A stretch of DNA of 64,000 nucleotides, from the NCBI GenBank assembly GCA_965247115.1, contig CBDFGR010000002.1, positions 1,498,669-1,562,668 on the forward strand. Direction: 5' to 3'. The first letter of the stretch is position 1. Each line of letters opens with the position of its first letter. The position numbers and the translations under genes were made by a program. The stretch comes from Myxococcota bacterium (GTDB lineage Bacteria > Myxococcota_A > UBA9160 > SZUA-336). Below the pieces are notes generated by a model. The model saw only the letters and a list, made by a program, of their open reading frames with translations, was not told the DNA's origin and made no database searches. Positions 9,036-63,911 of this stretch are shown here, piece by piece.

Positions 9036-10133
9036 TCAGCTCGGCGCGGCCCACGGATCGGGATCGAGGTCGAGGAAGCTCAGGGTCTCGGCCCCGAGCG
9101 CCGCGAGCGCCGCGTACAGGCGCTCGAGTCCCGGACGCTCCGTCGGGGCGTGTCCGGCATCGAGGAGACACATGCCTCGATCTTGGGCCGCTCGCGCAGC
9201 GTGGTGGCCCAGATCGCCCGTCACGACGGCGTCCGCGCCCGCCGCCGCGGCCAGGCTCAGCAGCTCAGAGCCCGAGCCGGGGATCACCGCGACCCGGTCG
9301 AGCACCCGGTCGGGGTCGCCGGCACGACGCAGCGTCTTCGTGTGTAGCTCCTCGGCCGCGCGCTGCGCCAGCCCCTGGAGCGTGGTCCCCGCGGCGGGTG
9401 TCCCGACTCGCCCGACCATTCCTGCGTTGCCATGGCGCTCGTAGACGTCGTAGGTAGGCTCCTCGTAGGGATGTGCAGCCACGAGCGCTCCCAGTGCCAG
9501 AGCTTCCTTGGATCGCGGCACCACGAACTCGAGCCGTACCTCGGGTTCCTCGTTCAGCCGTCCCTGCTTGCCCGTGCGGGGCTGGGTAGCAGCTCCGGCG
9601 AAGAAGGTCCCCACGCCCTCGGAACGGTAGGAGCAGCTCGAGTAGTTCCCGATCCGCCCCGCGCCCGCGGCGGAGACCGCCTGGAGCACCGACGGCGCGG
9701 CCTCCACGGGCAGAAAGGTGACGATCTTCAGGACATCTTGGCCGTACAGGGGGGCGAAGCCGGAGAGCTCGTCCAGGCCGAGTACCTCCGCCAGTGCGTC
9801 GGAGGTTCCTCCCTCGGCGACGTCGAAGTTCGTGTGGACCACGGCCAGCGCCGTGCCAAGGCGCGCCAGCCGCAACGTCCTGCCTTCCGGCGTCGCTCCA
9901 CTGAGCAGAGTGTTCGTGGACCGGAACAGCAACGGGTGGTAGCTGACGAGCAGGTCCACGGGACCTTGCTCCAGACGCGCGACGACCTCCTCGGTCACCT
10001 CGTGACACACTGCAACTCGTTCCACACGTGCAGAGGCATCTCCAAGCTGGAGGCCGACCGGATCCCAGGCCGCCGCCTTCTCAAACGGCGCACGCTGACC
10101 GAGCGAGGCGAGAAAGTCGGCTACCGTCCGCAC
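9036..10133 (-). CDS. Nif3-like dinuclear metal center protein (GTP cyclohydrolase 1 type 2 homolog)
   Basis: 365-aa ORF (GTG start); C-terminal AVIPGSGSELLSLAAAAGADAVVTGDLGHHAARAAQDRGMCLLDAGHAPTE is typical of Nif3/YqfO family. Confidence 0.75.
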   Translation of the reverse strand: MRTVADFLASLGQRAPFEKAAAWDPVGLQLGDASARVERVAVCHEVTEEVVARLEQGPVDLLVSYHPLLFRSTNTLLSGATPEGRTLRLARLGTALAVVHTNFDVAEGGTSDALAEVLGLDELSGFAPLYGQDVLKIVTFLPVEAAPSVLQAVSAAGAGRIGNYSSCSYRSEGVGTFFAGAATQPRTGKQGRLNEEPEVRLEFVVPRSKEALALGALVAAHPYEEPTYDVYERHGNAGMVGRVGTPAAGTTLQGLAQRAAEELHTKTLRRAGDPDRVLDRVAVIPGSGSELLSLAAAAGADAVVTGDLGHHAARAAQDRGMCLLDAGHAPTERPGLERLYAALAALGAETLSFLDLDPDPWAAPS

Positions 10134-10186
10134 ACGTCGGATGGTAGCGCCTTTGCCGGCGCTGCCGACTGAGGTACGATCCCGTG

Positions 10187-10405
10187 ATGCACATCTCGAT
10201 TACGTACTGCGGGGCCTGAAACTACCTCCCGCAGGCCACCAGTCTGGCGGCCACGATCAAGGCAGAAGTCGGCGTCGAGACCGAGTTGATTCGCGGCGGC
10301 AGCGGCGTCTTCGACGTAGAGGTCGACGGCCGCACGATCTACTCCAAATCCGAGACCGGCCGCTTCCCCGAGCCGGACGAGATCCTCCCGGAGCTCAAGG
10401 GGTAG
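10187..10405 (+). CDS. selenoprotein W-like (Rdx/SelW/SelT family) small redox protein with in-frame UGA (Sec) at 10217-10219
   Basis: Manual translation from ATG 10187: MHISITYCGA-U-NYLPQATSLAATIKAEVGVETELIRGGSGVFDVEVDGRTIYSKSETGRFPEPDEILPELKG*; CxxU motif and FDVEVDG...SK...GRFP signature; not in ORF track because of the TGA. Confidence 0.75.
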
Positions 10406-10411
10406 TGGGCC

Positions 10412-10500
10412 TTTTGGGACCCGGCCGCGGGCGTCCGCGGCCACCCACCTCCGCTCAGGCCAGGGGCCTTCGCTGCGCGCGCCGCTCTCGCAGCGCTTGC
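10412..10500 (+). repeat. GC-rich ~90-bp multi-hairpin repeat, copy A (REP/RPE/MITE-like family)
   Basis: TTTTGGGACCCGGCCGCGGGCGTCCGCGGCCACCCACCTCCGCTCAGGCC-AGG-GGCCTTCGCTGCGCGCGCCGCTCTCGCAGCGCTTGC, immediately after the selenoprotein stop; matches copies B-H. Confidence 0.85.
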
Positions 10501-10570
10501 GCGGGTGCTTGGTCGAGGACGGGGTCGGGAGATGTCGACAGGGATGGAGGCGCGGCCTAGGCTCCGTCGC

Positions 10571-10933
10571 ATGAGGCGTCGGCTTCTGGTTGTCACAACG
10601 GCCGCGATCCTCGGCGTGGGTTGTCTGGGGCCAACGCCGAATCCGGAAACTTGCAGGATCGAGATCGTCGGCGTCGAGAGCGCCGTCAACAACAACAGAG
10701 GCTTCGACATCTCGTACCGCGTGAAGGGGTACGCGGGAACACCAGGGGTCGTCTCACTCGTCGCGCAACGACACGACGGCGGCTACCTGTCGGGAAAGGG
10801 CGTCGACGTCGGCCCCGGAGCTTTCGTCGCAATCATCGAGCAAAAGCTCACCGGTCCCGCAACAGGCTACGTCGCCCTGCTCGAAGTCGCCGACAGCCGC
10901 TCCCGCGCCAACGCCAAACCACCAGAGGCCTAG
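10571..10933 (+). CDS. putative small secreted protein or lipoprotein
   Basis: Within ORF 10505..10933; MRRRLLVVTTAAILGVGC... resembles a signal peptide with lipobox-like LGVGC; bracketed by repeat copies A and B in inverted orientation. Start uncertain. Confidence 0.4.
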   Translation: MRRRLLVVTTAAILGVGCLGPTPNPETCRIEIVGVESAVNNNRGFDISYRVKGYAGTPGVVSLVAQRHDGGYLSGKGVDVGPGAFVAIIEQKLTGPATGYVALLEVADSRSRANAKPPEA

Positions 10934-10953
10934 CAGTCGACCTCGGCACCGCA

Positions 10954-11043
10954 GCAAGCGCCGCGAACGCGGCGCGCGCAGCGAAGGCCCTCGGCCTGAG
11001 CGGAGGTGGGTGGCCGCGGACGCCCGCGGCCGGGTCCCACAAG
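10954..11043 (-). repeat. GC-rich ~90-bp repeat, copy B (inverted relative to A)
   Basis: GCAAGCGCCGCGAACGCGGCGCGCGCAGCGAAGGCCCTCGGCCTGAGCGGAGGTGGGTGGCCGCGGACGCCCGCGGCCGGGTCCCACAAG; ends next to the korB stop codon. Confidence 0.85.
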
Positions 11044-12069
11044 TTACGAGACGGTCCAGCGGTCGCCGGCGAAGAGGAGGTCGGCGAGGCCTGCGTCGCC
11101 ATGCGCGAGCTCGGCCTGGGACTGCTCCTGCGTTTCACCGTCGAAGGTTGGCTCCTCCACGGCCCGCAGCACGCCGATCGGCGTGGGGAAGTCGGGCGCC
11201 TCGCAGCGGGCCAGCAACATGGACAACGTCGGGTCCCGATTCGTCTCGTCGTGCAGGACCTCCACGCCGTCGTCCTTGGCACCGACGTGACCAGCGTAGA
11301 GGCGCAGGTAGGTCGGGTTTAGCTTGAGCATACGATCGTGATCGTTGCCGTAGATGAGCGGCTGACCGTTCTCGAGCACGAGCAGGTGGTCGGACTTGAT
11401 CTTGCGGTCCTTGACCTCATCGAACACACCGTCGTTATAGACCGGGCAGTTCTGGTAGATCTCGAGGAAGGCAGAGCCTTTGTGCTCGGCCATCCGGCGA
11501 ATCATTTCCTGCAGGTGACGGGTCTCCGTGTCTACCGTCCGCGCGACGAAGGTCGCCTCGGCTCCCAGCGCCAGCGAGAGGGTGCGAAATGGCCGGGCCA
11601 CCGATCCGTTTGGCGACGACTTCGTCTTCATGCCGATCTCGGAGGTGGGCGAGAACTGACCCTTGGTCAGCCCGTAGACCTTGTTGTTGAACAGCAGGAT
11701 CTTCAGATCCACGTTGCGACGCAGCATGTGGATCAGGTGGTTTCCACCGATAGACAGCCCATCACCGTCGCCGGTCACCACCCACACGGACAGGTCGGGT
11801 CGTGCGATCTTCAGTCCGGTCGCGATGGCCGGCGCGCGCCCGTGAATCGTGTGAAAACCGAACGTGTCCATGTAGTACGGAAAGCGCGAGCTGCAGCCGA
11901 TCCCGGACACGAAGACGATGTTCTCGCGCGGGACGCCCAGCTCGGGCATGACCTTCTGCATCTGGGCGAGGATGGCGTAGTCGCCACAGCCCGGGCACCA
12001 GCGCACCGCCTCGTCCGGAATGAAGTCCTTCTTGGTCAGCTTCGGGGCATCTGCGGTCTGAATGCTCAT
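11044..12069 (-). CDS. korB: 2-oxoglutarate:ferredoxin oxidoreductase beta subunit
   Basis: 341 aa; WCPGCGDYAIL...GIGCSSRFPYYM...VVTGDGDGLSIGGNHLIHMLRRN, TPP-binding beta subunit signature; 4-bp overlap with korA. Confidence 0.85.
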   Translation of the reverse strand: MSIQTADAPKLTKKDFIPDEAVRWCPGCGDYAILAQMQKVMPELGVPRENIVFVSGIGCSSRFPYYMDTFGFHTIHGRAPAIATGLKIARPDLSVWVVTGDGDGLSIGGNHLIHMLRRNVDLKILLFNNKVYGLTKGQFSPTSEIGMKTKSSPNGSVARPFRTLSLALGAEATFVARTVDTETRHLQEMIRRMAEHKGSAFLEIYQNCPVYNDGVFDEVKDRKIKSDHLLVLENGQPLIYGNDHDRMLKLNPTYLRLYAGHVGAKDDGVEVLHDETNRDPTLSMLLARCEAPDFPTPIGVLRAVEEPTFDGETQEQSQAELAHGDAGLADLLFAGDRWTVS

Positions 12070-14464: not shown

Positions 14465-14653
14465 GAAGGCCTCCCCGAGCCCCTCCGGGCAGTGCGAAAG
14501 AATCCGGCCAGTGGCTCCTGGCGTCGACCTGGAGCGTGTCCGCACCCGCTGGGAGGGGTCGTTTGCGCCTCCGCAGTCTACCCCATCCGCCAGAGCGCAA
14601 CCCGAGATCGACCTAGACGCCGCGCCCGCTGGGTTGAGTACAGGGGCACTACT

Positions 14654-14743
14654 GCAAGCGCCGCGAAGACGGCGCGCGCAGCGAAGGCCGTAGGCCTGAG
14701 CGGAGGTGGGTGGCCGCGGCCGCCCGCGGCCGGGTCCCACAAG
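14654..14743 (-). repeat. GC-rich ~90-bp repeat, copy C
   Basis: GCAAGCGCCGCGAAGACGGCGCGCGCAGCGAAGGCCGTAGGCCTGAGCGGAGGTGGGTGGCCGCGGCCGCCCGCGGCCGGGTCCCACAAG, directly 3' of the alcohol dehydrogenase stop (14755). Confidence 0.85.
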
Positions 14744-14754
14744 ACCCGATCCCA

Positions 14755-46425: not shown

Positions 46426-46471
46426 CCCCTACCCGATCGGCAACCTGAACCCCTAGCCGATCGGCAACCTG
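46426..46471. promoter_or_regulatory. tandem 24-bp direct repeat, each unit carrying the palindrome CCGATCGG; candidate regulator-binding site
   Basis: CCCCTACCCGATCGGCAACCTG-aa-CCCCTAGCCGATCGGCAACCTG located 25-70 bp upstream of the epimerase start. Confidence 0.35.
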
Positions 46472-46553
46472 CAAGCGCCGCAATTGCGGCGCGCGCAGCG
46501 AAGGCCTGAGCGAAGGTGGGTGGCCCGCGGACGCCCGCGGGCCGGGTCCCACA
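46471..46553 (-). repeat. GC-rich repeat, copy D (short variant lacking the GGCC-N3-GGCC hairpin)
   Basis: GCAAGCGCCGCAATTGCGGCGCGCGCAGCGAAGGCCTGAGCGAAGGTGGGTGGCCCGCGGACGCCCGCGGGCCGGGTCCCACAG directly 3' of the sigma-54 regulator stop (46559). Confidence 0.8.
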
Positions 46554-46558
46554 GGGAC

Positions 46559-47986: not shown

Positions 47987-48044
47987 GGCGGTCACAGCTC
48001 GAGTCCATCGCTCACTCTATCGGCGAGGAACTCCGCGGGCTTGT

Positions 48045-48240
48045 CTTGTGGGACCCGGCCCGCGGGCGGCCGCGGGCCACCCACCTTCGCTCAGGCCAAA
48101 GGCCTTCGCTGCGCGCGCCGCTTCCGCGGCGCTTGCCTTGTGGGACCCGGCCCGCGGGCGGCCGCGGGCCACCCACCTTCGCTCAGGCCAAAGGCCCTCG
48201 CTGCGCGCGCCGCTTCCGCGGCGCTGCGCGCGCCGCTGCA
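48045..48240 (+). repeat. GC-rich repeat, copies E1 and E2 (two tandem units, period 92 bp)
   Basis: CTTGTGGGACCCGGCCCGCGGGCGGCCGCGGGCCACCCACCTTCGCTCAGGCCAAAGGCC(T/C)TCGCTGCGCGCGCCGCTTCCGCGGCGCTTGC twice, in the divergent intergenic region between the sigma-54 regulator and ligA. Confidence 0.85.
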
Positions 48241-51770: not shown

Positions 51771-51783
51771 CCGAGCCAACCGG

Positions 51784-51876
51784 GCAAGCGCCGCGGAACG
51801 CGGCGCGCGCAGCGAAGGCCGAAGGCCTGAGCGAAGGTGGGTGGCCCGCGGACGCCCGCGGGTCGGGTCCCACAAG
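51784..51876 (-). repeat. GC-rich repeat, copy F
   Basis: GCAAGCGCCGCGGAACGCGGCGCGCGCAGCGAAGGCCGAAGGCCTGAGCGAAGGTGGGTGGCCCGCGGACGCCCGCGGGTCGGGTCCCACAAG between convergent yraN-like and rplS. Confidence 0.85.
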
Positions 51877-51882
51877 ACAGGT

Positions 51883-55055: not shown

Positions 55056-56623
55056 CCCGCGTGGTCCCGGAGCGCCCGGAGCGCAATGTCGCTCCTGAGC
55101 TGGGCACCCTCGAACTGGATGCGACGCGCGGCGGCGTAGGCACGATCGCGGGCGGCGGCGATGCTGGCACCGCGGGCCGTGATGCCGAGCACGCGCCCAC
55201 CTGCCGTCTCCCAGCGACCGCCAGAGCGGCGGGTGGCGGCGTGAAACACGAGAACCTCCGGCTCGCTCTCGAGCTCCTCGAGCCCCCTGATCTCTCGCCC
55301 CACCGGGTAGCTGCGCGGATAGCCCTCGCTCGCCAGCACGACGCACACGGCCGGATCCCCGAAGACGGGGCCTGCGGGACCCGGCGCGCGAGCGGTCGCG
55401 CGCCACCCACCTCCGCTCGGCTTCGCCTCGCTGCGCGCGCCGCTATCCGCGGCGCTTGCACCTGCGGGACCCGGCGCGCGAGCGGTCGCGCGCCACCCAC
55501 CTCCGCTCGGCTTCGCCTCGCTGCGCGCGCCGCTATCCGCGGCGCTTGCACCTGCGGGACCCGGCGCGCGAGCGGTCGCGCGCCACCCACCTCCGCTCGG
55601 CTTCGCCTCGCTGCGCGCGCCGCTATCCGCGGCGCTTGCACCTGCGGGATCCGGCGCGCGAGCCGCTTGCAGAGGGAGCTGGCCCTGGGCCGCACCCACG
55701 AGCAGCGGGACGAGGTCGGACTCCATTCGGTACAGCAGAGGCTGCGTCTCCGGGTCGCCGAAGCGGACGTTAAACTCCACCACAACGGGCTCGGCCTCGA
55801 CGACCATCACGCCGACGTAGAGCACTCCCCGATAGGGCGTGCCCTCCGCACGCAGGCCGTCGAGCGTGGGCTGAACGATCTTCTCGATGATTCGCTGCTC
55901 CACGTCGGGGCTCACAACCGGGGCCGGGGAGTAGGCGCCCATGCCTCCTGTGTTCTCGCCGCGGTCACCGTCTAGCGCGCGTTTGTGATCCTGCGCAGCG
56001 GCCAGGCACACGCTGCGCTCCCCGTCGGAGATCGCGTAGTACGAGGCCTCCTCGCCAACGAGCCAGTCCTCGATCACGACCTCGGCACCGGAGTCGCCGA
56101 AGCGCCGCTCGCGCATGATCTCCGAGAGGGCAACGCTCGCCTCATCCGGACCCGCGCACATGTACACGCCCTTGCCAGCCGCGAGCCCGTCCGCCTTCAC
56201 GACAAGCGGCCCGCCGCGAGCGCGCACATACCGCTCCGCTTTGTCTGGGTCCGCGAAGCCCTGGTAGGCGGCAGTCGGGATGCCGTGGCGCTGCATGAAG
56301 GCCTTGGCGAAGCTCTTGCTGCCCTCAAGGCGAGCCGCGGCCGCGCCGGGCCCGAATACCGCGATCCCGGCAGCCTCGAGGTGATCCGCCAATCCCGCGA
56401 CCAGGGGAACCTCGGGACCGACGACCACCAGCTGAACGTCCTCGCGTTTCACGAGCTCCACGACGGAGTCGGGGCTGGCCAGCCGCGCCTCCGCACAGCG
56501 GCCGTGTCGCCCGATGCCGTCGCTGCCCGGGGCGCAGAGCACCTCGTCGACCAGCGGGCTGCGGCCGATCGCCCAGACCAGCGCGTGCTCACGACCTCCC
56601 GAGCCCAGAACCAGGACGCGCAT
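55052..56623 (-). CDS. purD: phosphoribosylamine--glycine ligase, carrying an about 95-aa in-frame insertion of repeat units
   Basis: MRVLVLGSGGREHAL...PLVVKADGLAAGKGV...FNVRFGDPETQ... then (ASAADSGARSEAKPSGGGWRATARAPGPAG)x3 before ...VVLASEGYP...; ATG at 56623 with GGAGGAG RBS. Confidence 0.9.
   Translation of the reverse strand: MRVLVLGSGGREHALVWAIGRSPLVDEVLCAPGSDGIGRHGRCAEARLASPDSVVELVKREDVQLVVVGPEVPLVAGLADHLEAAGIAVFGPGAAAARLEGSKSFAKAFMQRHGIPTAAYQGFADPDKAERYVRARGGPLVVKADGLAAGKGVYMCAGPDEASVALSEIMRERRFGDSGAEVVIEDWLVGEEASYYAISDGERSVCLAAAQDHKRALDGDRGENTGGMGAYSPAPVVSPDVEQRIIEKIVQPTLDGLRAEGTPYRGVLYVGVMVVEAEPVVVEFNVRFGDPETQPLLYRMESDLVPLLVGAAQGQLPLQAARAPDPAGASAADSGARSEAKPSGGGWRATARAPGPAGASAADSGARSEAKPSGGGWRATARAPGPAGASAADSGARSEAKPSGGGWRATARAPGPAGPVFGDPAVCVVLASEGYPRSYPVGREIRGLEELESEPEVLVFHAATRRSGGRWETAGGRVLGITARGASIAAARDRAYAAARRIQFEGAQLRSDIALRALRDHAG
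55371..55674 (+). repeat. GC-rich repeat, copies G1-G3 plus a partial fourth, period exactly 90 bp, inside purD coding sequence
   Basis: CCTGCGGGACCCGGCGCGCGAGCGGTCGCGCGCCACCCACCTCCGCTCGGCTTCGCCTCGCTGCGCGCGCCGCTATCCGCGGCGCTTGCA repeated at 55371, 55461, 55551; a diverged variant of the intergenic repeat. Confidence 0.85.
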
Positions 56624-56631
56624 CACTCCTC

Positions 56632-56751
56632 CTTGTGGGACCCGCGCGCGGGCGGCCCTCCCGCGGGTCAACGACCCGCGGGCCGCTGACGGCTTCCCAC
56701 CTTCGCTCAGGCCTACGGCCTTCGCTGCGCGCGCCGCTATGCGGCGCTTGC
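56632..56751 (+). repeat. GC-rich repeat, copy H (long variant with about 30-bp internal insertion)
   Basis: CTTGTGGGACCCGCGCGCGGGCGGCCCTCCCGCGGG...TTCCCACCTTCGCTCAGGCCTACGGCCTTCGCTGCGCGCGCCGCTATGCGGCGCTTGC; abuts the purD RBS and lies 3' of alr. Confidence 0.8.
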
Positions 56752-56802
56752 AGGCTGCCTATTCTAGCGCTCAGGCTTACGACCTTCGGCGCGTTTCTTG
56801 GG

Positions 56803-58982: not shown

Positions 58983-59602
58983 TCCCGCGCCTCTGCTACA
59001 TCACAGATGCCGAGCGAGGGACCGGCGGGCGCCCGCTGGCACAAGTGCTGAAGGACTCGGCCCGCGGCGGAGTGGAGCTCGTGGTGCTGAGAGAGCCCCA
59101 GCTAGAGGGCAGCGAATGGGAGGCTCTCTTGCAGCAGATCGCCCCGCTGCGCGAGGAGGGGCTCAGAGTGGTCGCCAGTCGCCGCTTGGACGTGGCTAGA
59201 GCCTGCGAGCTGGATGGCGTCCACCTGGCGGCCGACGCGATCAGCGTAGCCGAGGCTCGCGCCTGGCTGGGGCCGGGGGCCCTGATCGGATATTCGGCCC
59301 ACTCGGGCAGCGAGGCTCGCGACGCTGCCGCCGCCGGCGCAAGCTATGTGACACTTTCGCCGATCTACCAGACAGCGTCCAAACCCGGGACTGCCGGTCG
59401 GGGCTGCGCCTGGCTGGCGCAAGAGCTGCGGGAGGTGGAACTTCCCGTACTCGCACTCGGCGGCCTGACACCGGAACGCACACCGGAGGTGCTGGAGGCC
59501 GGAGCCTGGGGCGTCGCGGCAGTGTCCGCGATCGGCGCGGCTCCGGACGTCAGGGCGGCCGTCGGTGAATTTCAGAACGCACTCAAGGAGAACGCACCAT
59601 GA
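58979..59602 (+). CDS. thiE: thiamine-phosphate synthase
   Basis: 207 aa, GTG start; ...LCYITD...VLALGGL... TMP-synthase pattern; follows thiG. Confidence 0.85.
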
Positions 59603-61053
59603 CTCGCGCCTCACTCCTCGTACCGTTCGTCGCGAGCTTGGTCGGCTGCACAAGCCTGCCGAGCGCGCTCGCGAACGATCCGCTGGAGGCCCTGCAGACC
59701 CGGGTCATCGACGTCAACCACGCGGCGAGCCCCTCCGTCGTCCACATCGAGGCGGCGCTCAAGGTCAACAACCGGCGCAAGCTGGTGACAGGCTCCGGCT
59801 TCATTACCCATCCCGAGGGCATCGTGGTGACAAACGAGCACGTGGTCGAGCGGGCGCAGAAGGTCACCGTCCTGGTTCCTGGACGCGAGGGTCGCTATGC
59901 GGCGCAGGTCGTGGGAACGGACAAGCAGACGGACCTCGCGGTCCTGCGCATCGAGCCGCGCGAGGGGGAGCCGCCTTTCGCCGCAGCCGCACTCGGTGAC
60001 TCCGACCAGCTGCGCGTTGGGGAGTGGGTGATCGCGATCGGAAATCCCTACGGGCTGGAAGGGACGGTCTCGCTTGGGATCGTGTCGGCCAAGGGCCGGG
60101 ATCTGAAAGAAGGGAATCTGCTGAACGACTTCATCCAGACGGACGCCATGATCGATCACGGCTCGTCGGGCGGACCTTTGCTCGATCTGGACGGGCTGGT
60201 CGTAGGCGTGAATTCCCGCGGCCAGGGTCGCGGCATCGGCTTCACCATCCCCATCAACACGGCCAAGCAGGTCGCGGCCGATCTGCTGGGCGAGGGGCGC
60301 ATCGCGCGCGGCTATCTCGGCGTGTCCATTCAGCCGCTCGATCGCGAGCTCGCCCGCTACTGGGGCATCGAGCAGATCCACGGCGTGATCGTCGGCGCGG
60401 TGACGCACCAATCGCCTGCCCAGAATGCCGGGCTCCACGTGGGCGACATCATCACGCGCTTCGACGGCGAGGAGATCCGCGCGGAGAAGGACGAGGACAT
60501 GGGCCAGTTCCAGCGCCTGATCGCGGCCATGCAGGCGGGGGAGGAGGTCGCGATCGACGTATTGCGCGGTGGTGAGCACAAGACCGTTACCGCGACGCTG
60601 AGCGCCCAGCCCAAGGTCGTACCCGATGAGGAAGAGACCGAGCTCGGCTTCACCGCCCAGGAGGTGACCGAGATCCTCTATCGATCCCACCGTCTCGAGC
60701 AACGCTCCGGGGTGCTCTGCTCCTTCGTCGAGCGCGGCTCGGAGGCGGCTGAGGCGGGCATGGCACCTGGAGACCTGATCGTGGAGGTCGAGGGGGTCGA
60801 GATCCGCGACATCGAGGAGTTCCGGCAGGCGATGAGGGACCTGCGTCCTGGCACTCCGTTCCTGATCCGGGCGCTGCGTGGCGACAACATGCGGTACATG
60901 CTGGTCGTGCCGCGTTCCGGCGACTTCCGGGCCGCAAGCGCGAGACCCGAGCGGCAGCTTGCGCGCAAGATCGATGTGCGAGCCAGAGACGAGGGCGGGG
61001 AGGGAACAGATCTTGCGCAGTCATCCTCTGAAGGCAGGCGGATCACCAAATAG
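59599..61053 (+). CDS. HtrA/DegP family periplasmic serine protease with PDZ domains (paralog 1)
   Basis: 484 aa; signal/lipoprotein-like N-terminus; ...VVTNEHVV..., ...DLAVL..., ...GSSGGPL catalytic triad context; PDZ region. Confidence 0.9.
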   Translation: MTRASLLVPFVASLVGCTSLPSALANDPLEALQTRVIDVNHAASPSVVHIEAALKVNNRRKLVTGSGFITHPEGIVVTNEHVVERAQKVTVLVPGREGRYAAQVVGTDKQTDLAVLRIEPREGEPPFAAAALGDSDQLRVGEWVIAIGNPYGLEGTVSLGIVSAKGRDLKEGNLLNDFIQTDAMIDHGSSGGPLLDLDGLVVGVNSRGQGRGIGFTIPINTAKQVAADLLGEGRIARGYLGVSIQPLDRELARYWGIEQIHGVIVGAVTHQSPAQNAGLHVGDIITRFDGEEIRAEKDEDMGQFQRLIAAMQAGEEVAIDVLRGGEHKTVTATLSAQPKVVPDEEETELGFTAQEVTEILYRSHRLEQRSGVLCSFVERGSEAAEAGMAPGDLIVEVEGVEIRDIEEFRQAMRDLRPGTPFLIRALRGDNMRYMLVVPRSGDFRAASARPERQLARKIDVRARDEGGEGTDLAQSSSEGRRITK

Positions 61054-61087
61054 GGCGGCGGAGCCCGCCGTCAAAGGGACTGGCCCG

Positions 61088-62443
61088 ATGAAGAGCACCC
61101 TACTCGCTTGGGTCGTCCTTCCGATCCTCGCGATCGGGAGCACGGCTGTAGCCGACGTCGACACGCGCCGCACCCCCATTGTGAAGGCCGTAGAGCGCGT
61201 TGGCCCAGCCACAGTGAACATCACCTCGACCCAGGAGGTGCGCCAGCGGGCCAATCCCTTCTTCAGCTCGGACCCGTTCATCGAGAAGTTCTTCGGCACC
61301 TTCCTCGATCCCCGGCGCCGAACGGTCAGCAGCCTGGGTACCGGCCTCATCATCGGGCCAGAGGGCCAGGTGCTGACGAACGAGCACGTCCTGGCCGGCG
61401 CGACACAGATCCACGTCGTGCTCGCCGACGGGCGCGAGTTCGACGCCGAGCTCATCGGCGCGGACCCGGAGACGGACCTCGCGGTCGTGCAGATCAGCGC
61501 GGACGAGCCGCTGCCCTTCGTGGAGCTCGGGAGCTCGGAGGATCTGCTGATTGGCGAGACCGTGATCGCGATCGGGAACCCTTTCGGCCTGCACCACACG
61601 GTAACAACCGGCGTGCTCTCAGCGGAGAACCGCTCGATCCGCGCGGGCGACCGCGAGTACCACGGGTTCCTGCAGACCGACGCAAGTATCAACCCAGGGA
61701 ACTCGGGCGGACCGCTGCTCAACATCGACGGCGACGTGATCGCCATCAATACCGCCATCTTTCGCGAGGCGGAGGGAATCGGCTTTGCCATCCCGATAGA
61801 CAGGGCGAAGCGGGTCGTCGACGACCTCTTGACCCACGGCGAGGTCATTCCGGTCTGGCTGGGCCTTCGCCTGCAAGACCTCACCCAGAGCCTCCGCGAC
61901 GCGTTCACTGCCCGCGCGACGGGCGGCGTCCTGATTACGCACGTCTTCGCTGACTCCCCCGCGCAGCGCGCGAAGCTGCGCCGTGGCGACATCCTGCTCG
62001 AGCTGGATGGGACGAAGATCGGCACCGCGCGCAACTACTTCGAGGTCCTGGCCGGGCTGACCGATGGGGACCGCGCCGAGCTCGTGATCGACCGCGGGGG
62101 AGATCAACATCGGCAGGAGACGCACGCTGAGATCTTTCCGGAGAGCAGGGCCGACGAGCTGGCTCAGATCCTTCTCGGTGTGGAAGTTGCGGAGATAGAC
62201 AGTGAGCCGGGGGCCCGCCGCCGGGGCAACCGCGGCCTCGTAGTGCGGCGTGTCATCCCCCGTAGCTCAGCGGATTACAAGAGGATTCGACCAGGCGATG
62301 TGATCCTGAAGATCGACCAGGACCCGGTCGAGGATCGTGTTGCCTTTCGCAAGGCGATTACTAAGCTTCGCGGACGTGGACAGGTGCTCCTTCTCGTCCA
62401 GCGCGAGCGCTATGGCTACTACGTGACCCTGGATCTGTCCTAG
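61088..62443 (+). CDS. HtrA/DegP family serine protease (paralog 2)
   Basis: ATG at 61088; MKSTLLAWVVLPILAIG signal peptide; ...VLTNEHVL..., ...DLAVV..., ...GNSGGPL... Confidence 0.9.
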   Translation: MKSTLLAWVVLPILAIGSTAVADVDTRRTPIVKAVERVGPATVNITSTQEVRQRANPFFSSDPFIEKFFGTFLDPRRRTVSSLGTGLIIGPEGQVLTNEHVLAGATQIHVVLADGREFDAELIGADPETDLAVVQISADEPLPFVELGSSEDLLIGETVIAIGNPFGLHHTVTTGVLSAENRSIRAGDREYHGFLQTDASINPGNSGGPLLNIDGDVIAINTAIFREAEGIGFAIPIDRAKRVVDDLLTHGEVIPVWLGLRLQDLTQSLRDAFTARATGGVLITHVFADSPAQRAKLRRGDILLELDGTKIGTARNYFEVLAGLTDGDRAELVIDRGGDQHRQETHAEIFPESRADELAQILLGVEVAEIDSEPGARRRGNRGLVVRRVIPRSSADYKRIRPGDVILKIDQDPVEDRVAFRKAITKLRGRGQVLLLVQRERYGYYVTLDLS

Positions 62444-62462
62444 ACCGCAGGAGAGGAATTCG

Positions 62463-63911
62463 ATGAGACACGGCAAGGTTCTGGCGGCGATCGGCTTCGC
62501 GTTTGGGGGATTGCTGATCCTCACCCAACCGCTGGGCCTGGAGCTGCGGCTGAGCGAAAAGAGTGCCCACGCCCGCGTCGCGGGCGACGCCTTCTGGACG
62601 GACGGACAACCCGGCCCCACGCTCGGCAGGCCCGACTCGGTGGCGGATCTGGCCGAGGCCCTGTCTCCCGCGGTCGTGAACATCAAAACGGAGCGGAAGA
62701 GCAGCGCTCGCAGTCCCGACATCTTCGAGGAGTTCTTCGGGCGCCGCCGTCCTCGGGGAGGACCGCCTCCACAGTTCCGCACCGACGCGACGGGCTCGGG
62801 CTTCGTAATCTCCGAGGACGGCTACATCGTGACGAACAACCACGTGGTGGAGGGAGCCGACAAGATCGTTGTGGTGCTGGACAACGGAGAGGAGCTCGAT
62901 GCGGAGATCGTCGGTCGTGACCCGGAGACGGACCTGGCGTTGCTCAAGATAGACGCCGATCACGAGCTCAACGTCGCACCGCTAGGTGACTCCGACGCCA
63001 TCCGCGTCGGCGATTGGCTCATGGCGATCGGCAATCCCTTCGGACTCGATCACACGGTTACCCTCGGCATCCTGTCCGCGCGCGGCCGCAACATCAACGC
63101 AGGAAGGTACGACGACTTCCTGCAGACCGACGCGAGCATAAATCCTGGCAACTCGGGTGGACCGCTGTTCGACATGCGCGGGCGCGTGATCGGGATCAAC
63201 ACGGCAATCAACCAGAACGGTCAGGGCATCGGCTTTGCCATCCCGATCAACATGGCGAAGGATCTGCTCCCTCAGCTGCGCGCCGTGGGCGCGGTGACGC
63301 GAGGCTGGCTCGGTGTGCAGATTCAGCGCGTGAACCCGGCCCTGGCGAAGAGCTTCGGGCTCGATGAGCCGCGCGGCGCCCTCATCTCCATGGTCTTCGA
63401 GGACGGGCCGGCGGACAAGGCCCGGATCAAGCGCGGCGACGTGATCGTCGAGTTCGACGGCTCCGCGATCGACGAGTTCAACGACCTTCCGAGAATCGTG
63501 GCGAATACCGCTCCCGAGAGCGAGGTCTCGGTCAAGGTGCTGCGCGACGGTAAGGCCAAGACCCTCAAGGCAAGGCTCGGCAAGCTGGAGGAGGACCAGG
63601 TCCAGCTGGCATCGACCGAGCGCCACGATTCCGAGTGGGGCTTCGAGGTGGAGGCCCTGACCAGCGACATCGTGGAGAGGCTCGATCTGGACAAGGACCT
63701 GTCCGGCGTCCTGGTAACGGGCGTCGATCCCGAGTCAGGTGCCTACGATGAGGGGCTGCGCCAGGGCGACATCATTCTCGAGGTGAACCGCACCGAGGTC
63801 TCCCGGCCCGACCAGGTGACCCGGGCGCTCGAGAAGGAAGACGAGCACGCCGTGCTTCTCGTGCAGCGAGGCGAGGCGACGCTGTATCTCGCGATCGAGC
63901 GGGAGCGGTAG
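62463..63911 (+). CDS. HtrA/DegP family serine protease with two PDZ domains (paralog 3)
   Basis: 482 aa; ...IVTNNHVV..., ...DLALL..., ...GNSGGPL...; two PDZ-like C-terminal regions. Confidence 0.9.
   Translation: MRHGKVLAAIGFAFGGLLILTQPLGLELRLSEKSAHARVAGDAFWTDGQPGPTLGRPDSVADLAEALSPAVVNIKTERKSSARSPDIFEEFFGRRRPRGGPPPQFRTDATGSGFVISEDGYIVTNNHVVEGADKIVVVLDNGEELDAEIVGRDPETDLALLKIDADHELNVAPLGDSDAIRVGDWLMAIGNPFGLDHTVTLGILSARGRNINAGRYDDFLQTDASINPGNSGGPLFDMRGRVIGINTAINQNGQGIGFAIPINMAKDLLPQLRAVGAVTRGWLGVQIQRVNPALAKSFGLDEPRGALISMVFEDGPADKARIKRGDVIVEFDGSAIDEFNDLPRIVANTAPESEVSVKVLRDGKAKTLKARLGKLEEDQVQLASTERHDSEWGFEVEALTSDIVERLDLDKDLSGVLVTGVDPESGAYDEGLRQGDIILEVNRTEVSRPDQVTRALEKEDEHAVLLVQRGEATLYLAIERER

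Follow-up and report, generated by a model that had tools for sequence, protein, structure and literature searches.

Inverted copies of a stop-proximal hairpin repeat around a small putative lipoprotein gene in an uncultured Myxococcota lineage

Introduction

Does a small gene that lies between two inverted copies of a repeat owe its place to those repeats, or have the repeats settled separately around a gene that was already there? The question is raised by a locus of a Myxococcota bacterium, situated in a stretch of 64,000 nucleotides of contig CBDFGR010000002.1 (the window; positions are counted from its first letter unless another locus is named). In this locus, a single open reading frame (ORF) at 10571-10933 of the plus strand, 120 codons long, stands between a repeat arm at 10411-10508 (plus strand, copy A) and another at 10946-11043 (minus strand, copy B). 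The ORF follows a selenoprotein gene of the Rdx (SelW-like) family and faces korB, the gene for the beta subunit of 2-oxoglutarate:ferredoxin oxidoreductase. The initial annotation, made from the letters alone, offered two readings of this arrangement: a composite cassette bounded by miniature inverted-repeat transposable elements (MITEs), or two independent 3'-end elements, one for each neighbouring gene, which happen to face each other. Comparison with related lineages argues strongly against the former. Quite probably, the ORF is old and vertically inherited, and copies A and B are independent insertions, resembling repetitive extragenic palindromes (REPs) and bacterial interspersed mosaic elements (BIMEs), behind two convergent genes.

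Layout of the locus

The inverted repeat was found where the initial annotation had put it. Each arm is 98 nt long, the arms are 91% complementary and 437 nt apart, and one ORF lies inside; copies A and B have an exact match of 46 nt in common, which none of 100 dinucleotide-preserving shuffles produced. Read on the plus strand, the order is Rdx, copy A, the ORF, copy B, korB and korA, with the last two genes pointing towards the others. The upstream gene (10187-10405, plus strand, 72 codons and a stop) is indeed a selenoprotein gene, belonging to the Rdx family of Pfam and containing an in-frame TGA. Copy A starts 5 nt past its TAG stop, lies sense to it, comprises three hairpins and scores 101 bits with the covariance model of the repeat. 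The start that had been annotated for the ORF was essentially correct, its ATG being at 10571 and its stop at 10931-10933. Behind it, alignment identifies the remnant CAGTCGACCTCG of the native ORF-korB spacer (10934-10945), homologous to the 15-nt spacers of two relatives (L027 and L028) and running on into G10946, with which the aligned arm of copy B begins. Copy B (108.5 bits) lies sense to korB, and its 5' end CTTGTGGGAC is 0 nt from the TAA stop of that gene (11044-12069, minus strand; Pfam TPP_enzyme_C, E = 1.1e-30). Furthermore, korB is syntenic with korA (POR domains) at every related locus.

The species is represented by three assemblies made independently, namely the window, L001 and L002 (98.4-99.7% identical). 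The layout is identical in all of them, and the arrangement of A and B is therefore not an assembly artefact. A promoter and terminator scan of 9900-11300 on both strands flagged nothing and found no terminator-like site.

Occupied, half-occupied and empty sites in related lineages

Contigs encoding homologues of the ORF were compared at the orthologous sites and a few kb around each, and the relatives were ordered by the nucleotide identity of their korB to that of the window. Site A denotes the spacer between Rdx and the ORF, and site B that between the ORF and korB. Both are occupied in the window, L001 and L002 (korB 99.3% identical in L001), by copies A and B respectively. L028 (92.8%) carries a variant element at site A and an empty site B of 15 nt. 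Both sites are empty in the remaining relatives: site A spans ~42 nt and site B -4 nt, with overlapping stop codons, in L026 (88.7%), ~31 and 15 nt in L027 (88.3%), ~27 and 7 nt in L003 (82.6%), and ~33 and -4 nt in L004-6 (80.7%). The order of Rdx, ORF and convergent korB is kept in five related lineages, the korB genes of which are 81-93% identical to that of the window. With a covariance model of 28 copies (E <= 1), no repeat copy was detected in L003, L004, L005, L026 or L027.

Occupancy is thus nested with relatedness, from neither copy through A only (L028) to A and B together (the species of the window). Therefore, copy B is the younger of the two copies, and the ORF precedes both. On the most parsimonious account, the insertion of copy A dates to the ancestor that L028 shares with the species of the window, and that of copy B is a later event confined to the latter. 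Relatives in which Rdx and korB adjoin each other with no ORF between them, a state for which the initial annotation had suggested looking, do not occur among the five lineages, all of which have the ORF. As the ORF is conserved in place in lineages without one or both repeats, the cassette reading is refuted. Moreover, the divergence of the ORF across relatives parallels that of the neighbouring genes.

The sites themselves bear traces of these events. The site A element of L028 starts with TGTGGGACCCGGCCGCGGGC, 3 nt past the Rdx stop, and its middle is swapped for another hairpin module. It has in common with copy A of the window a CTCTC loop in the third hairpin, which is absent from all other copies, and an identical 3' tail; judged from these letters, it is orthologous to copy A and has been remodelled. 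The empty sites of the relatives lack not only copy A but also the stretch behind it up to ~10530. At site B, the empty-site alignment delimits copy B as exactly the 98 nt between the native spacer CAGTCGACCTCGG and the korB stop. This spacer is retained beside the copy and is homologous to those of L027 and L028. Target-site duplications (TSDs) at the outer ends of the pair, for which the initial annotation had suggested looking, were not found at 10411 or 11043: the empty-site alignments reveal none at site A or site B, the two sites with empty-site comparators, and no direct repeat surrounds the whole unit, whose outer flanks read GGGGTAG/TGGGC... and ...CACAAG/TTACGAG (the slash marking the junction).

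The small lipoprotein gene

The ORF is a real gene, as indicated by its ratio of nonsynonymous to synonymous substitutions (dN/dS), an invariant lipobox Gly-Cys and a beta-sandwich model. Pairwise dN/dS is 0.16-0.37, and the G+C content at the three codon positions (0.66/0.50/0.76) follows a coding pattern, with a third-position value (GC3) below the 0.86-0.89 of the neighbours. The product begins MRRRLLVVTTAAILGVGC, its N-terminus being composed of MRRR, LLVVTTAAILGV and GC, with a signal peptide and a lipobox-like LGVGC. The 14 homologues are 68-99% identical. In the alignment of 15 sequences, Cys28 and the Gly-Cys that follows the hydrophobic N-terminal stretch are invariant, and the latter lends support to the earlier guess that the product may be a lipoprotein. 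By pattern reading, position -2 of the lipobox is V, A or T, and position -3 is G, W, A, V or L, not consistently the usual L.

An AlphaFold model built on the alignment is all-beta with a pLDDT of 82.6 (core >90), from which the product is confidently predicted to be a single immunoglobulin (Ig)-like beta-sandwich of the Ig or FN3 kind. Sequence searches of Pfam, NCBIfam and PDB returned no match, and a profile search of 1.84 billion representative proteins recovered only 19 clusters of the family. The gene probably encodes a small, lineage-restricted, Ig-like protein anchored by a lipid. The Ig-like lipoproteins as a whole would form a tiny family, restricted to this lineage and in every case linked to an Rdx selenoprotein gene.

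Two details of the homologues deserve mention. Codon 111 of the ORF (10901-10903) is Ser (TCC) in the window and Cys (TGC) in 14/14 homologues, including those of L001 and L002, which are 99% identical to it. Cys111 is likely to be the disulfide partner of the invariant Cys28, and the C111S change of the window may reflect strain variation or an error of sequencing. Additionally, the signal peptide of the L028 homologue (L028 760-830) contains a threefold 21-nt tandem repeat (gatcctcgcggcgggtt.cgc), which encodes ILAAGFAILAAGCAILATGC with two lipobox-like Cys residues.

The repeat family and its hairpins

The window holds 11 copies of the repeat in 64 kb, that is, one per 5.8 kb. Besides A and B, copy C (14645-14743, minus strand) lies 11 nt past the stop of a co-oriented Zn-dependent alcohol dehydrogenase (ADH) gene. 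Copy D (46458-46556, minus strand), which has no middle hairpin, lies 3 nt past the stop of a gene for a sigma-54-dependent response regulator. Copies E and F (48044-48222, plus strand) follow each other head to tail at a 92-nt period and lie upstream of ligA, in a divergent region, and copy G (51776-51879, minus strand) lies 6 nt past the stop of rplS (L19), between convergent genes. Repeat search and covariance model also found three tandem copies of a family variant with a 90-nt period (55361-55640, plus strand). Copy H (56622-56764, plus strand) is a longer mosaic with an extra hairpin module, CCCGCGGGTCAACGACCCGCGGG, which is also present in the site A element of L028.

The consensus starts with CTTGTGGGAC CCGG. 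Its first hairpin, GGCC(C)GCGG-GCGK-CCGC(G)GGCC, is closed by GTGGG/CCCAC and followed by CCACCTYCGCTCA; the second, GGCC-nnn-GGCC, is followed by TTCGCTGCGC; and the third, GCGCCGC-nnnn-GCGGCGC, by TTGC. The corresponding stem-loops (SL1 to SL3) of copy A are GTGGG..GGCCGCGG-GCGT-CCGCGGCC..CCCAC, GGCC-AGG-GGCC and GCGCCGC-TCTC-GCAGCGC. Terminal inverted repeats (TIRs) are absent, as the 5' end CTTGTGGGACCC is not complementary to the 3' end GCGGCGCTTGC(AGG) and the palindromy is all internal. No T tract stands behind the hairpins either, SL1 and SL3 leading into CACCCACC and TTGC.

These hairpins are maintained through compensatory change. Over 28 copies, 97% of the cells in the hairpins are paired, and five pairs are changed on both sides compared with 1.0 in shuffles, a value that 0/500 shuffles reached. 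Copies A-C differ from D-G by a matching compensatory C/G indel in SL1. Even between strains that are ~99% identical, SL1 of copy B (window 11011-11032, L001 6488-6510) shows compensatory C->AG and G->CT changes, the stem being GGCCGCGG/CCGCGGCC in the window and GGAGCGCGG/CCGCGCTCC in L001 and L002. Selection, conversion from another copy or template switching on the palindrome are possible causes of this change. A 2-nt indel between copy B and the korB stop also separates the window from L001.

The number of copies varies. The spacer between the ADH and CBS genes contains a single copy in the window and a tandem pair in L001 and L002 (10088-10292), strains that are ~99% identical, and hence shows a copy-number polymorphism like that of variable-number tandem repeats. 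Tandem units also make up the E/F pair, the threefold array and a fivefold array with a 92-nt period (L020). In L013 (4784-5040), two copies face each other 3' to 3' at a distance of 35 nt with no gene between them, in a co-directional spacer upstream of a gene with an alaS-like (alanyl-tRNA synthetase) N-terminus. Copies D and H, and those of L014 and L015, are mosaic or degenerate. Short partial duplicates of the 5' end precede several copies (14744-14754 and 10406-10410; L013 1578-1600 and 5026-5040), for example TAG-TGGGATCGGGT-CTTGTGGGAC and CTTGTGGGACTGGGC-CTTGTGGGAC. They may be traces left by former copies or by the way in which the repeat is inserted.

Position and polarity relative to stop codons

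The repeat has a clear polarity relative to genes, its 5' end usually lying 0-22 nt past the stop codon of a gene that points the same way (18/31 sites). The counts cover sites in three species with a gene called on the side in question, the ORFs used being long and rich in GC3. A co-oriented ORF ends at most 25 nt from the repeat 5' end at 17/31 sites, or at 18 when Rdx is counted, which the gene caller missed because of its in-frame TGA. At the repeat 3' end, any gene end lies within 25 nt at 7/32 sites only, and the median distance from gene end to repeat is 13 nt on the 5' side versus 121 nt on the 3' side. In the window, the distances from stop codon to repeat 5' end are 0 nt for B (korB), 3 nt for D, 5 nt for A (Rdx), 6 nt for G (rplS) and 11 nt for C (ADH). 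The initial suggestion of two independent 3'-end elements facing each other is well borne out by these data: A and B lie 5 and 0 nt past a co-oriented stop, they were acquired separately, and most other copies have the same polarity.

Copy C lies 11 nt from the ADH stop although the ADH-CBS spacer is 108-188 nt long in the relatives; tight spacers alone are therefore insufficient to account for the polarity. Moreover, A and B are opposite to each other within 0.5 kb, each behind its own gene. Orientation therefore tracks the gene and not the direction of replication, which was rejected as its cause.

Distribution of the repeat

When 185,579 species, each represented by a single genome, were scanned for the exact core of the repeat, only two genomes had matches: a Myxococcota metagenome-assembled genome (MAG), CBDDEE01, with 22, among them a fivefold array with a 92-nt period, and a 'Deltaproteobacteria bacterium' MAG with 2. 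Both differ in species from the window, and 30 or more copies lie in the loci of these two genomes. One contig with the repeat was found in a scan of the JGI metagenome collection, and none in the plasmid collection searched. Rfam 15 gave no match at gathering score in the whole window and only chance-level matches (E >= 1.6) in 10150-11100. A look at the literature on myxobacterial REP families found nothing relevant. The repeat represents a REP-like family not described before, from an uncultured Myxococcota lineage.

The Rdx selenoprotein gene

The gene in front of copy A matches the Pfam family Rdx with E = 3.8e-18 when its in-frame TGA is read as Cys. This TGA corresponds to selenocysteine (Sec, U) at codon 11 in the motif Y-C-G-A-U(-N-Y), a CxxU redox motif, and is conserved in six lineages (the window, L003, L004, L026, L027 and L028). 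About 15 nt past it lies a hairpin, GGCCACCAGUCUGGCGGCC, which is conserved in the same six lineages (window 10187-10275). Its changes are one-sided only, with no double compensatory changes among the six. It is a plausible candidate for a bacterial selenocysteine insertion sequence (SECIS). The GC3 of the gene is 0.89.

The divergent spacer between NIF3 and Rdx (53 nt; window 10140-10189) contains TTGCCG-16 nt-TACGAT, conserved in L026-L028. The -10-like box lies only ~7 nt before the Rdx ATG and was not flagged by the promoter scan tool; its position suggests a transcript that may be leaderless or have a very short leader. In L003 (5545-5715), a different element, bounded by the inverted repeats GTGTCCTGTTCCGG ... 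CCGGAACAGGACAC, sits between NIF3 and Rdx. Thus, an unrelated repeat of MITE-like appearance has settled in this neighbourhood in a different lineage.

Other features of the window and of related loci

Three further observations lie apart from the locus. The segment 55140-56800 of the window, in which the threefold array and copy H lie, has no confident gene call, and the ORFs there have a high G+C content at second codon positions and no Pfam match. At 59599-63911, three consecutive paralogous genes encode products of ~485-520 aa and have internal DNA repeats in common, ~1.45-1.54 kb apart (D4, D6). In L001 (268-1479), an insertion sequence (DDE_Tnp_1 / DUF772 transposase) lies upstream of the NAPRTase gene. 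It is missing in L002 and in the window (~6640) and is a strain-level polymorphism.

Origin of the bracket and possible roles of the repeat

The origin that accords best with these observations is a sequence of two separate arrivals. The lipoprotein gene would be ancestral and would always have stood between Rdx and the convergent korB. A repeat of ~98 nt with three hairpins would have been inserted twice, separately, into the two very short spacers beside the ORF, copy A first, right behind the Rdx stop, and copy B later, right behind the korB stop. As Rdx and korB point towards each other, the copies behind them inevitably do so as well, and the ORF comes to lie within an inverted repeat. 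As regards the manner of spread, the absence of TIRs and TSDs fits REP/RAYT-type (REP-associated tyrosine transposase) or recombinational spread better than a MITE mobilised by a DDE transposase.

A composite transposon, in which the inverted copies would be the ends of a MITE-bounded unit that brought the ORF into the Rdx-korB spacer, is extremely improbable. Its geometry suits, with 98-nt inverted arms, 91% complementary, and one ORF within, and the GC3 of the ORF is 0.76 compared with 0.86-0.89 in the neighbours. However, five lineages carry the ORF, in unchanged position and orientation, beside one repeat copy at most, and L028 has copy A and not copy B. No TSD surrounds the unit, and the repeat has no TIR. 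Furthermore, the native ORF-korB spacer survives beside copy B, and the divergence of the ORF tracks that of its neighbours. Other classes of element were also rejected. The repeat is not a MITE derived from a DDE transposon, as it has no TIR and, at sites A and B, no TSD. It is not the attC site of an integron cassette, as no recombinase lies nearby, the ORF keeps its place across lineages, and copy B, at the 3' end of the ORF, is antisense to it. It was likewise rejected as an intrinsic (Rho-independent) terminator, the hairpins having no T/U tract.

What the repeat does where it lies is a separate matter. Tentatively, and with somewhat less than an even chance of being right, it may be transcribed and act in cis, as a module of hairpins close to the stop codon, on the mRNA of the upstream gene. 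Such a module would protect the 3' end of the mRNA, end or pause transcription, or modulate the termination of translation. Rdx and the ORF are probably co-transcribed in relatives, where they lie ~27-42 nt apart, and copy A may uncouple Rdx from the lipoprotein gene. Several points weigh against this role and against the stop-codon rule behind it. The role itself is inferred. A count bearing on RNA versus DNA structure gave 12 G-U versus 7 A-C mismatches, no significant excess, and the folding energies of single copies are ordinary for 67% G+C (z = -1.2 to -2.9). The antisense strand of the repeat folds slightly better than the sense strand, and without a T tract the repeat is not a canonical intrinsic terminator. 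Template switching can yield compensatory changes in DNA palindromes without selection. Moreover, ~40% of the sites break the stop-codon rule: E/F, L008, L019 and L021 adjoin gene starts, and H is anti-oriented. The facing pair of L013 is a further exception. The genes of the related loci were called with a simple GC3-based caller written for the analysis, and the view of the relatives extends only over the orthologous sites and their nearest few kb.

An equally sober reading beside the role in cis is a selfish or neutral element, for which the stop-proximal position reflects the insertion preference of the mobilising enzyme together with selection against disruption of promoters and ribosome-binding sites, the bracket being of no consequence. 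The chance that this is the whole explanation is appreciable, at about one in three. Copy number varies between near-identical strains, one versus two in the ADH-CBS spacer; tandem arrays occur (E/F, the threefold array and the fivefold one in L020), as do mosaic or degenerate copies (D, H, L014, L015) and short 5' stubs (duplicated CTTGTGGG) at several junctions. In addition, the strand test of G-U and A-C mismatches shows no asymmetry, and the family is restricted to a very narrow lineage. The strong orientation bias towards the upstream gene, even in the long ADH-CBS spacer, and the keeping of the hairpins by compensatory change speak against it, although a mechanistic origin is still compatible with either.

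It is very unlikely that A and B work as a coupled pair, either through an A/B duplex in read-through RNA, a substrate of the RNase III type, that loops out the ORF, or through DNA inversion of the 0.44-kb segment. The RNA of 10400-11050 does fold with A paired to B over the full length (~100 bp; -407 kcal/mol, z = -13.8), the interval from the ORF stop to copy B lacks any terminator-like site, and the two copies have the exact 46-nt stretch in common. However, the duplex is a matter of thermodynamics only, and local folding of each copy would come first as transcription proceeds. The two arrivals were separated in time, and relatives that have neither copy express this gene set too. Additionally, no inversion is seen, all three assemblies of the species having one orientation, and the facing pair 35 nt apart in L013 encloses nothing. 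A bolder and improbable reading holds that the repeat is a mobile 3'-untranslated-region module that homes sense-wise to the few nucleotides right behind stop codons, with the A/B duplex processing or insulating the lipoprotein cistron. If true, the module would choose its targets by the direction in which genes are expressed and not by DNA sequence, and A and B would pair in read-through RNA as a duplex of ~100 bp, separating the lipoprotein cistron from the selenoprotein cistron.

Relation to known repeat elements

Independent REP/BIME-like insertions, the favoured origin, invite comparison with the elements of other bacteria. In the part of PMC12306157 that cites Liang, Rudd and Deutscher (2015), about half of the E. 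coli REPs studied are placed at most 15 nt from a stop codon, and stop-proximal REPs are stated to stall terminating ribosomes and to lower translation and expression. The same part of PMC12306157 also describes REPs as protecting mRNA 3' ends. The present repeat resembles REPs and BIMEs in being an extragenic, G+C-rich, imperfect palindrome with variable loops that is kept as hairpins, and in its mosaics, tandem arrays, inverted pairs, lack of TIRs and TSDs and strain-polymorphic copy number. Also alike is the large share of copies within ~15 nt of the stop of the upstream gene, as far as that part of PMC12306157 describes it. It differs in being a fixed triple hairpin of ~90-98 nt, whereas a REP is a single palindrome of 20-40 nt, and in having mostly one orientation relative to the gene instead of alternating inverted pairs. 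Each of the three hairpins of the unit is 20-35 nt long. The density in the window would extrapolate to hundreds of copies; the related MAG has only 22 exact-core matches.

MITEs such as Correia/NEMIS of Neisseria, ERIC/IRU and RUP are likewise small, non-coding, multi-copy, dispersed and structured, and are often co-transcribed with neighbouring genes. The repeat differs from them in its lack of TIRs and, at the two sites with empty-site comparators, of TSDs, and in its common head-to-tail arrays, which are unusual for MITEs. Mycobacterial interspersed repetitive units (MIRUs) are intergenic units of 40-100 bp that are oriented as the flanking genes and start near the upstream stop. They form tandem arrays with a copy number that varies between strains, and are described as being non-palindromic, with short ORFs that couple translation. 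The repeat shares with MIRUs the intergenic location, the gene-like orientation, the stop-proximal start and the tandem arrays of variable copy number, but it is dominated by strong hairpins and has a period of 90-92 nt, which is not a multiple of three. To a composite transposon or an integron cassette, the locus is similar in that one ORF is bounded by structured repeats. The difference is that the ORF is conserved without the repeats and that copy B belongs to korB and is antisense to the ORF.

Significance

The main value of the finding is negative: the cassette-like look arises from two unrelated insertions around an old gene and is not evidence of gene mobility. Furthermore, the polarity of the repeat is unusually clean, with the 5' end keeping close behind the stop of a co-oriented gene. 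The related lineages also provide a natural series, in which one locus can be compared with both sites filled, with one filled and with none. Such a series is suited to asking how elements without TIRs or TSDs are inserted, and whether, beyond E. coli, termination or the decay of mRNA is modulated by stop-proximal hairpins.

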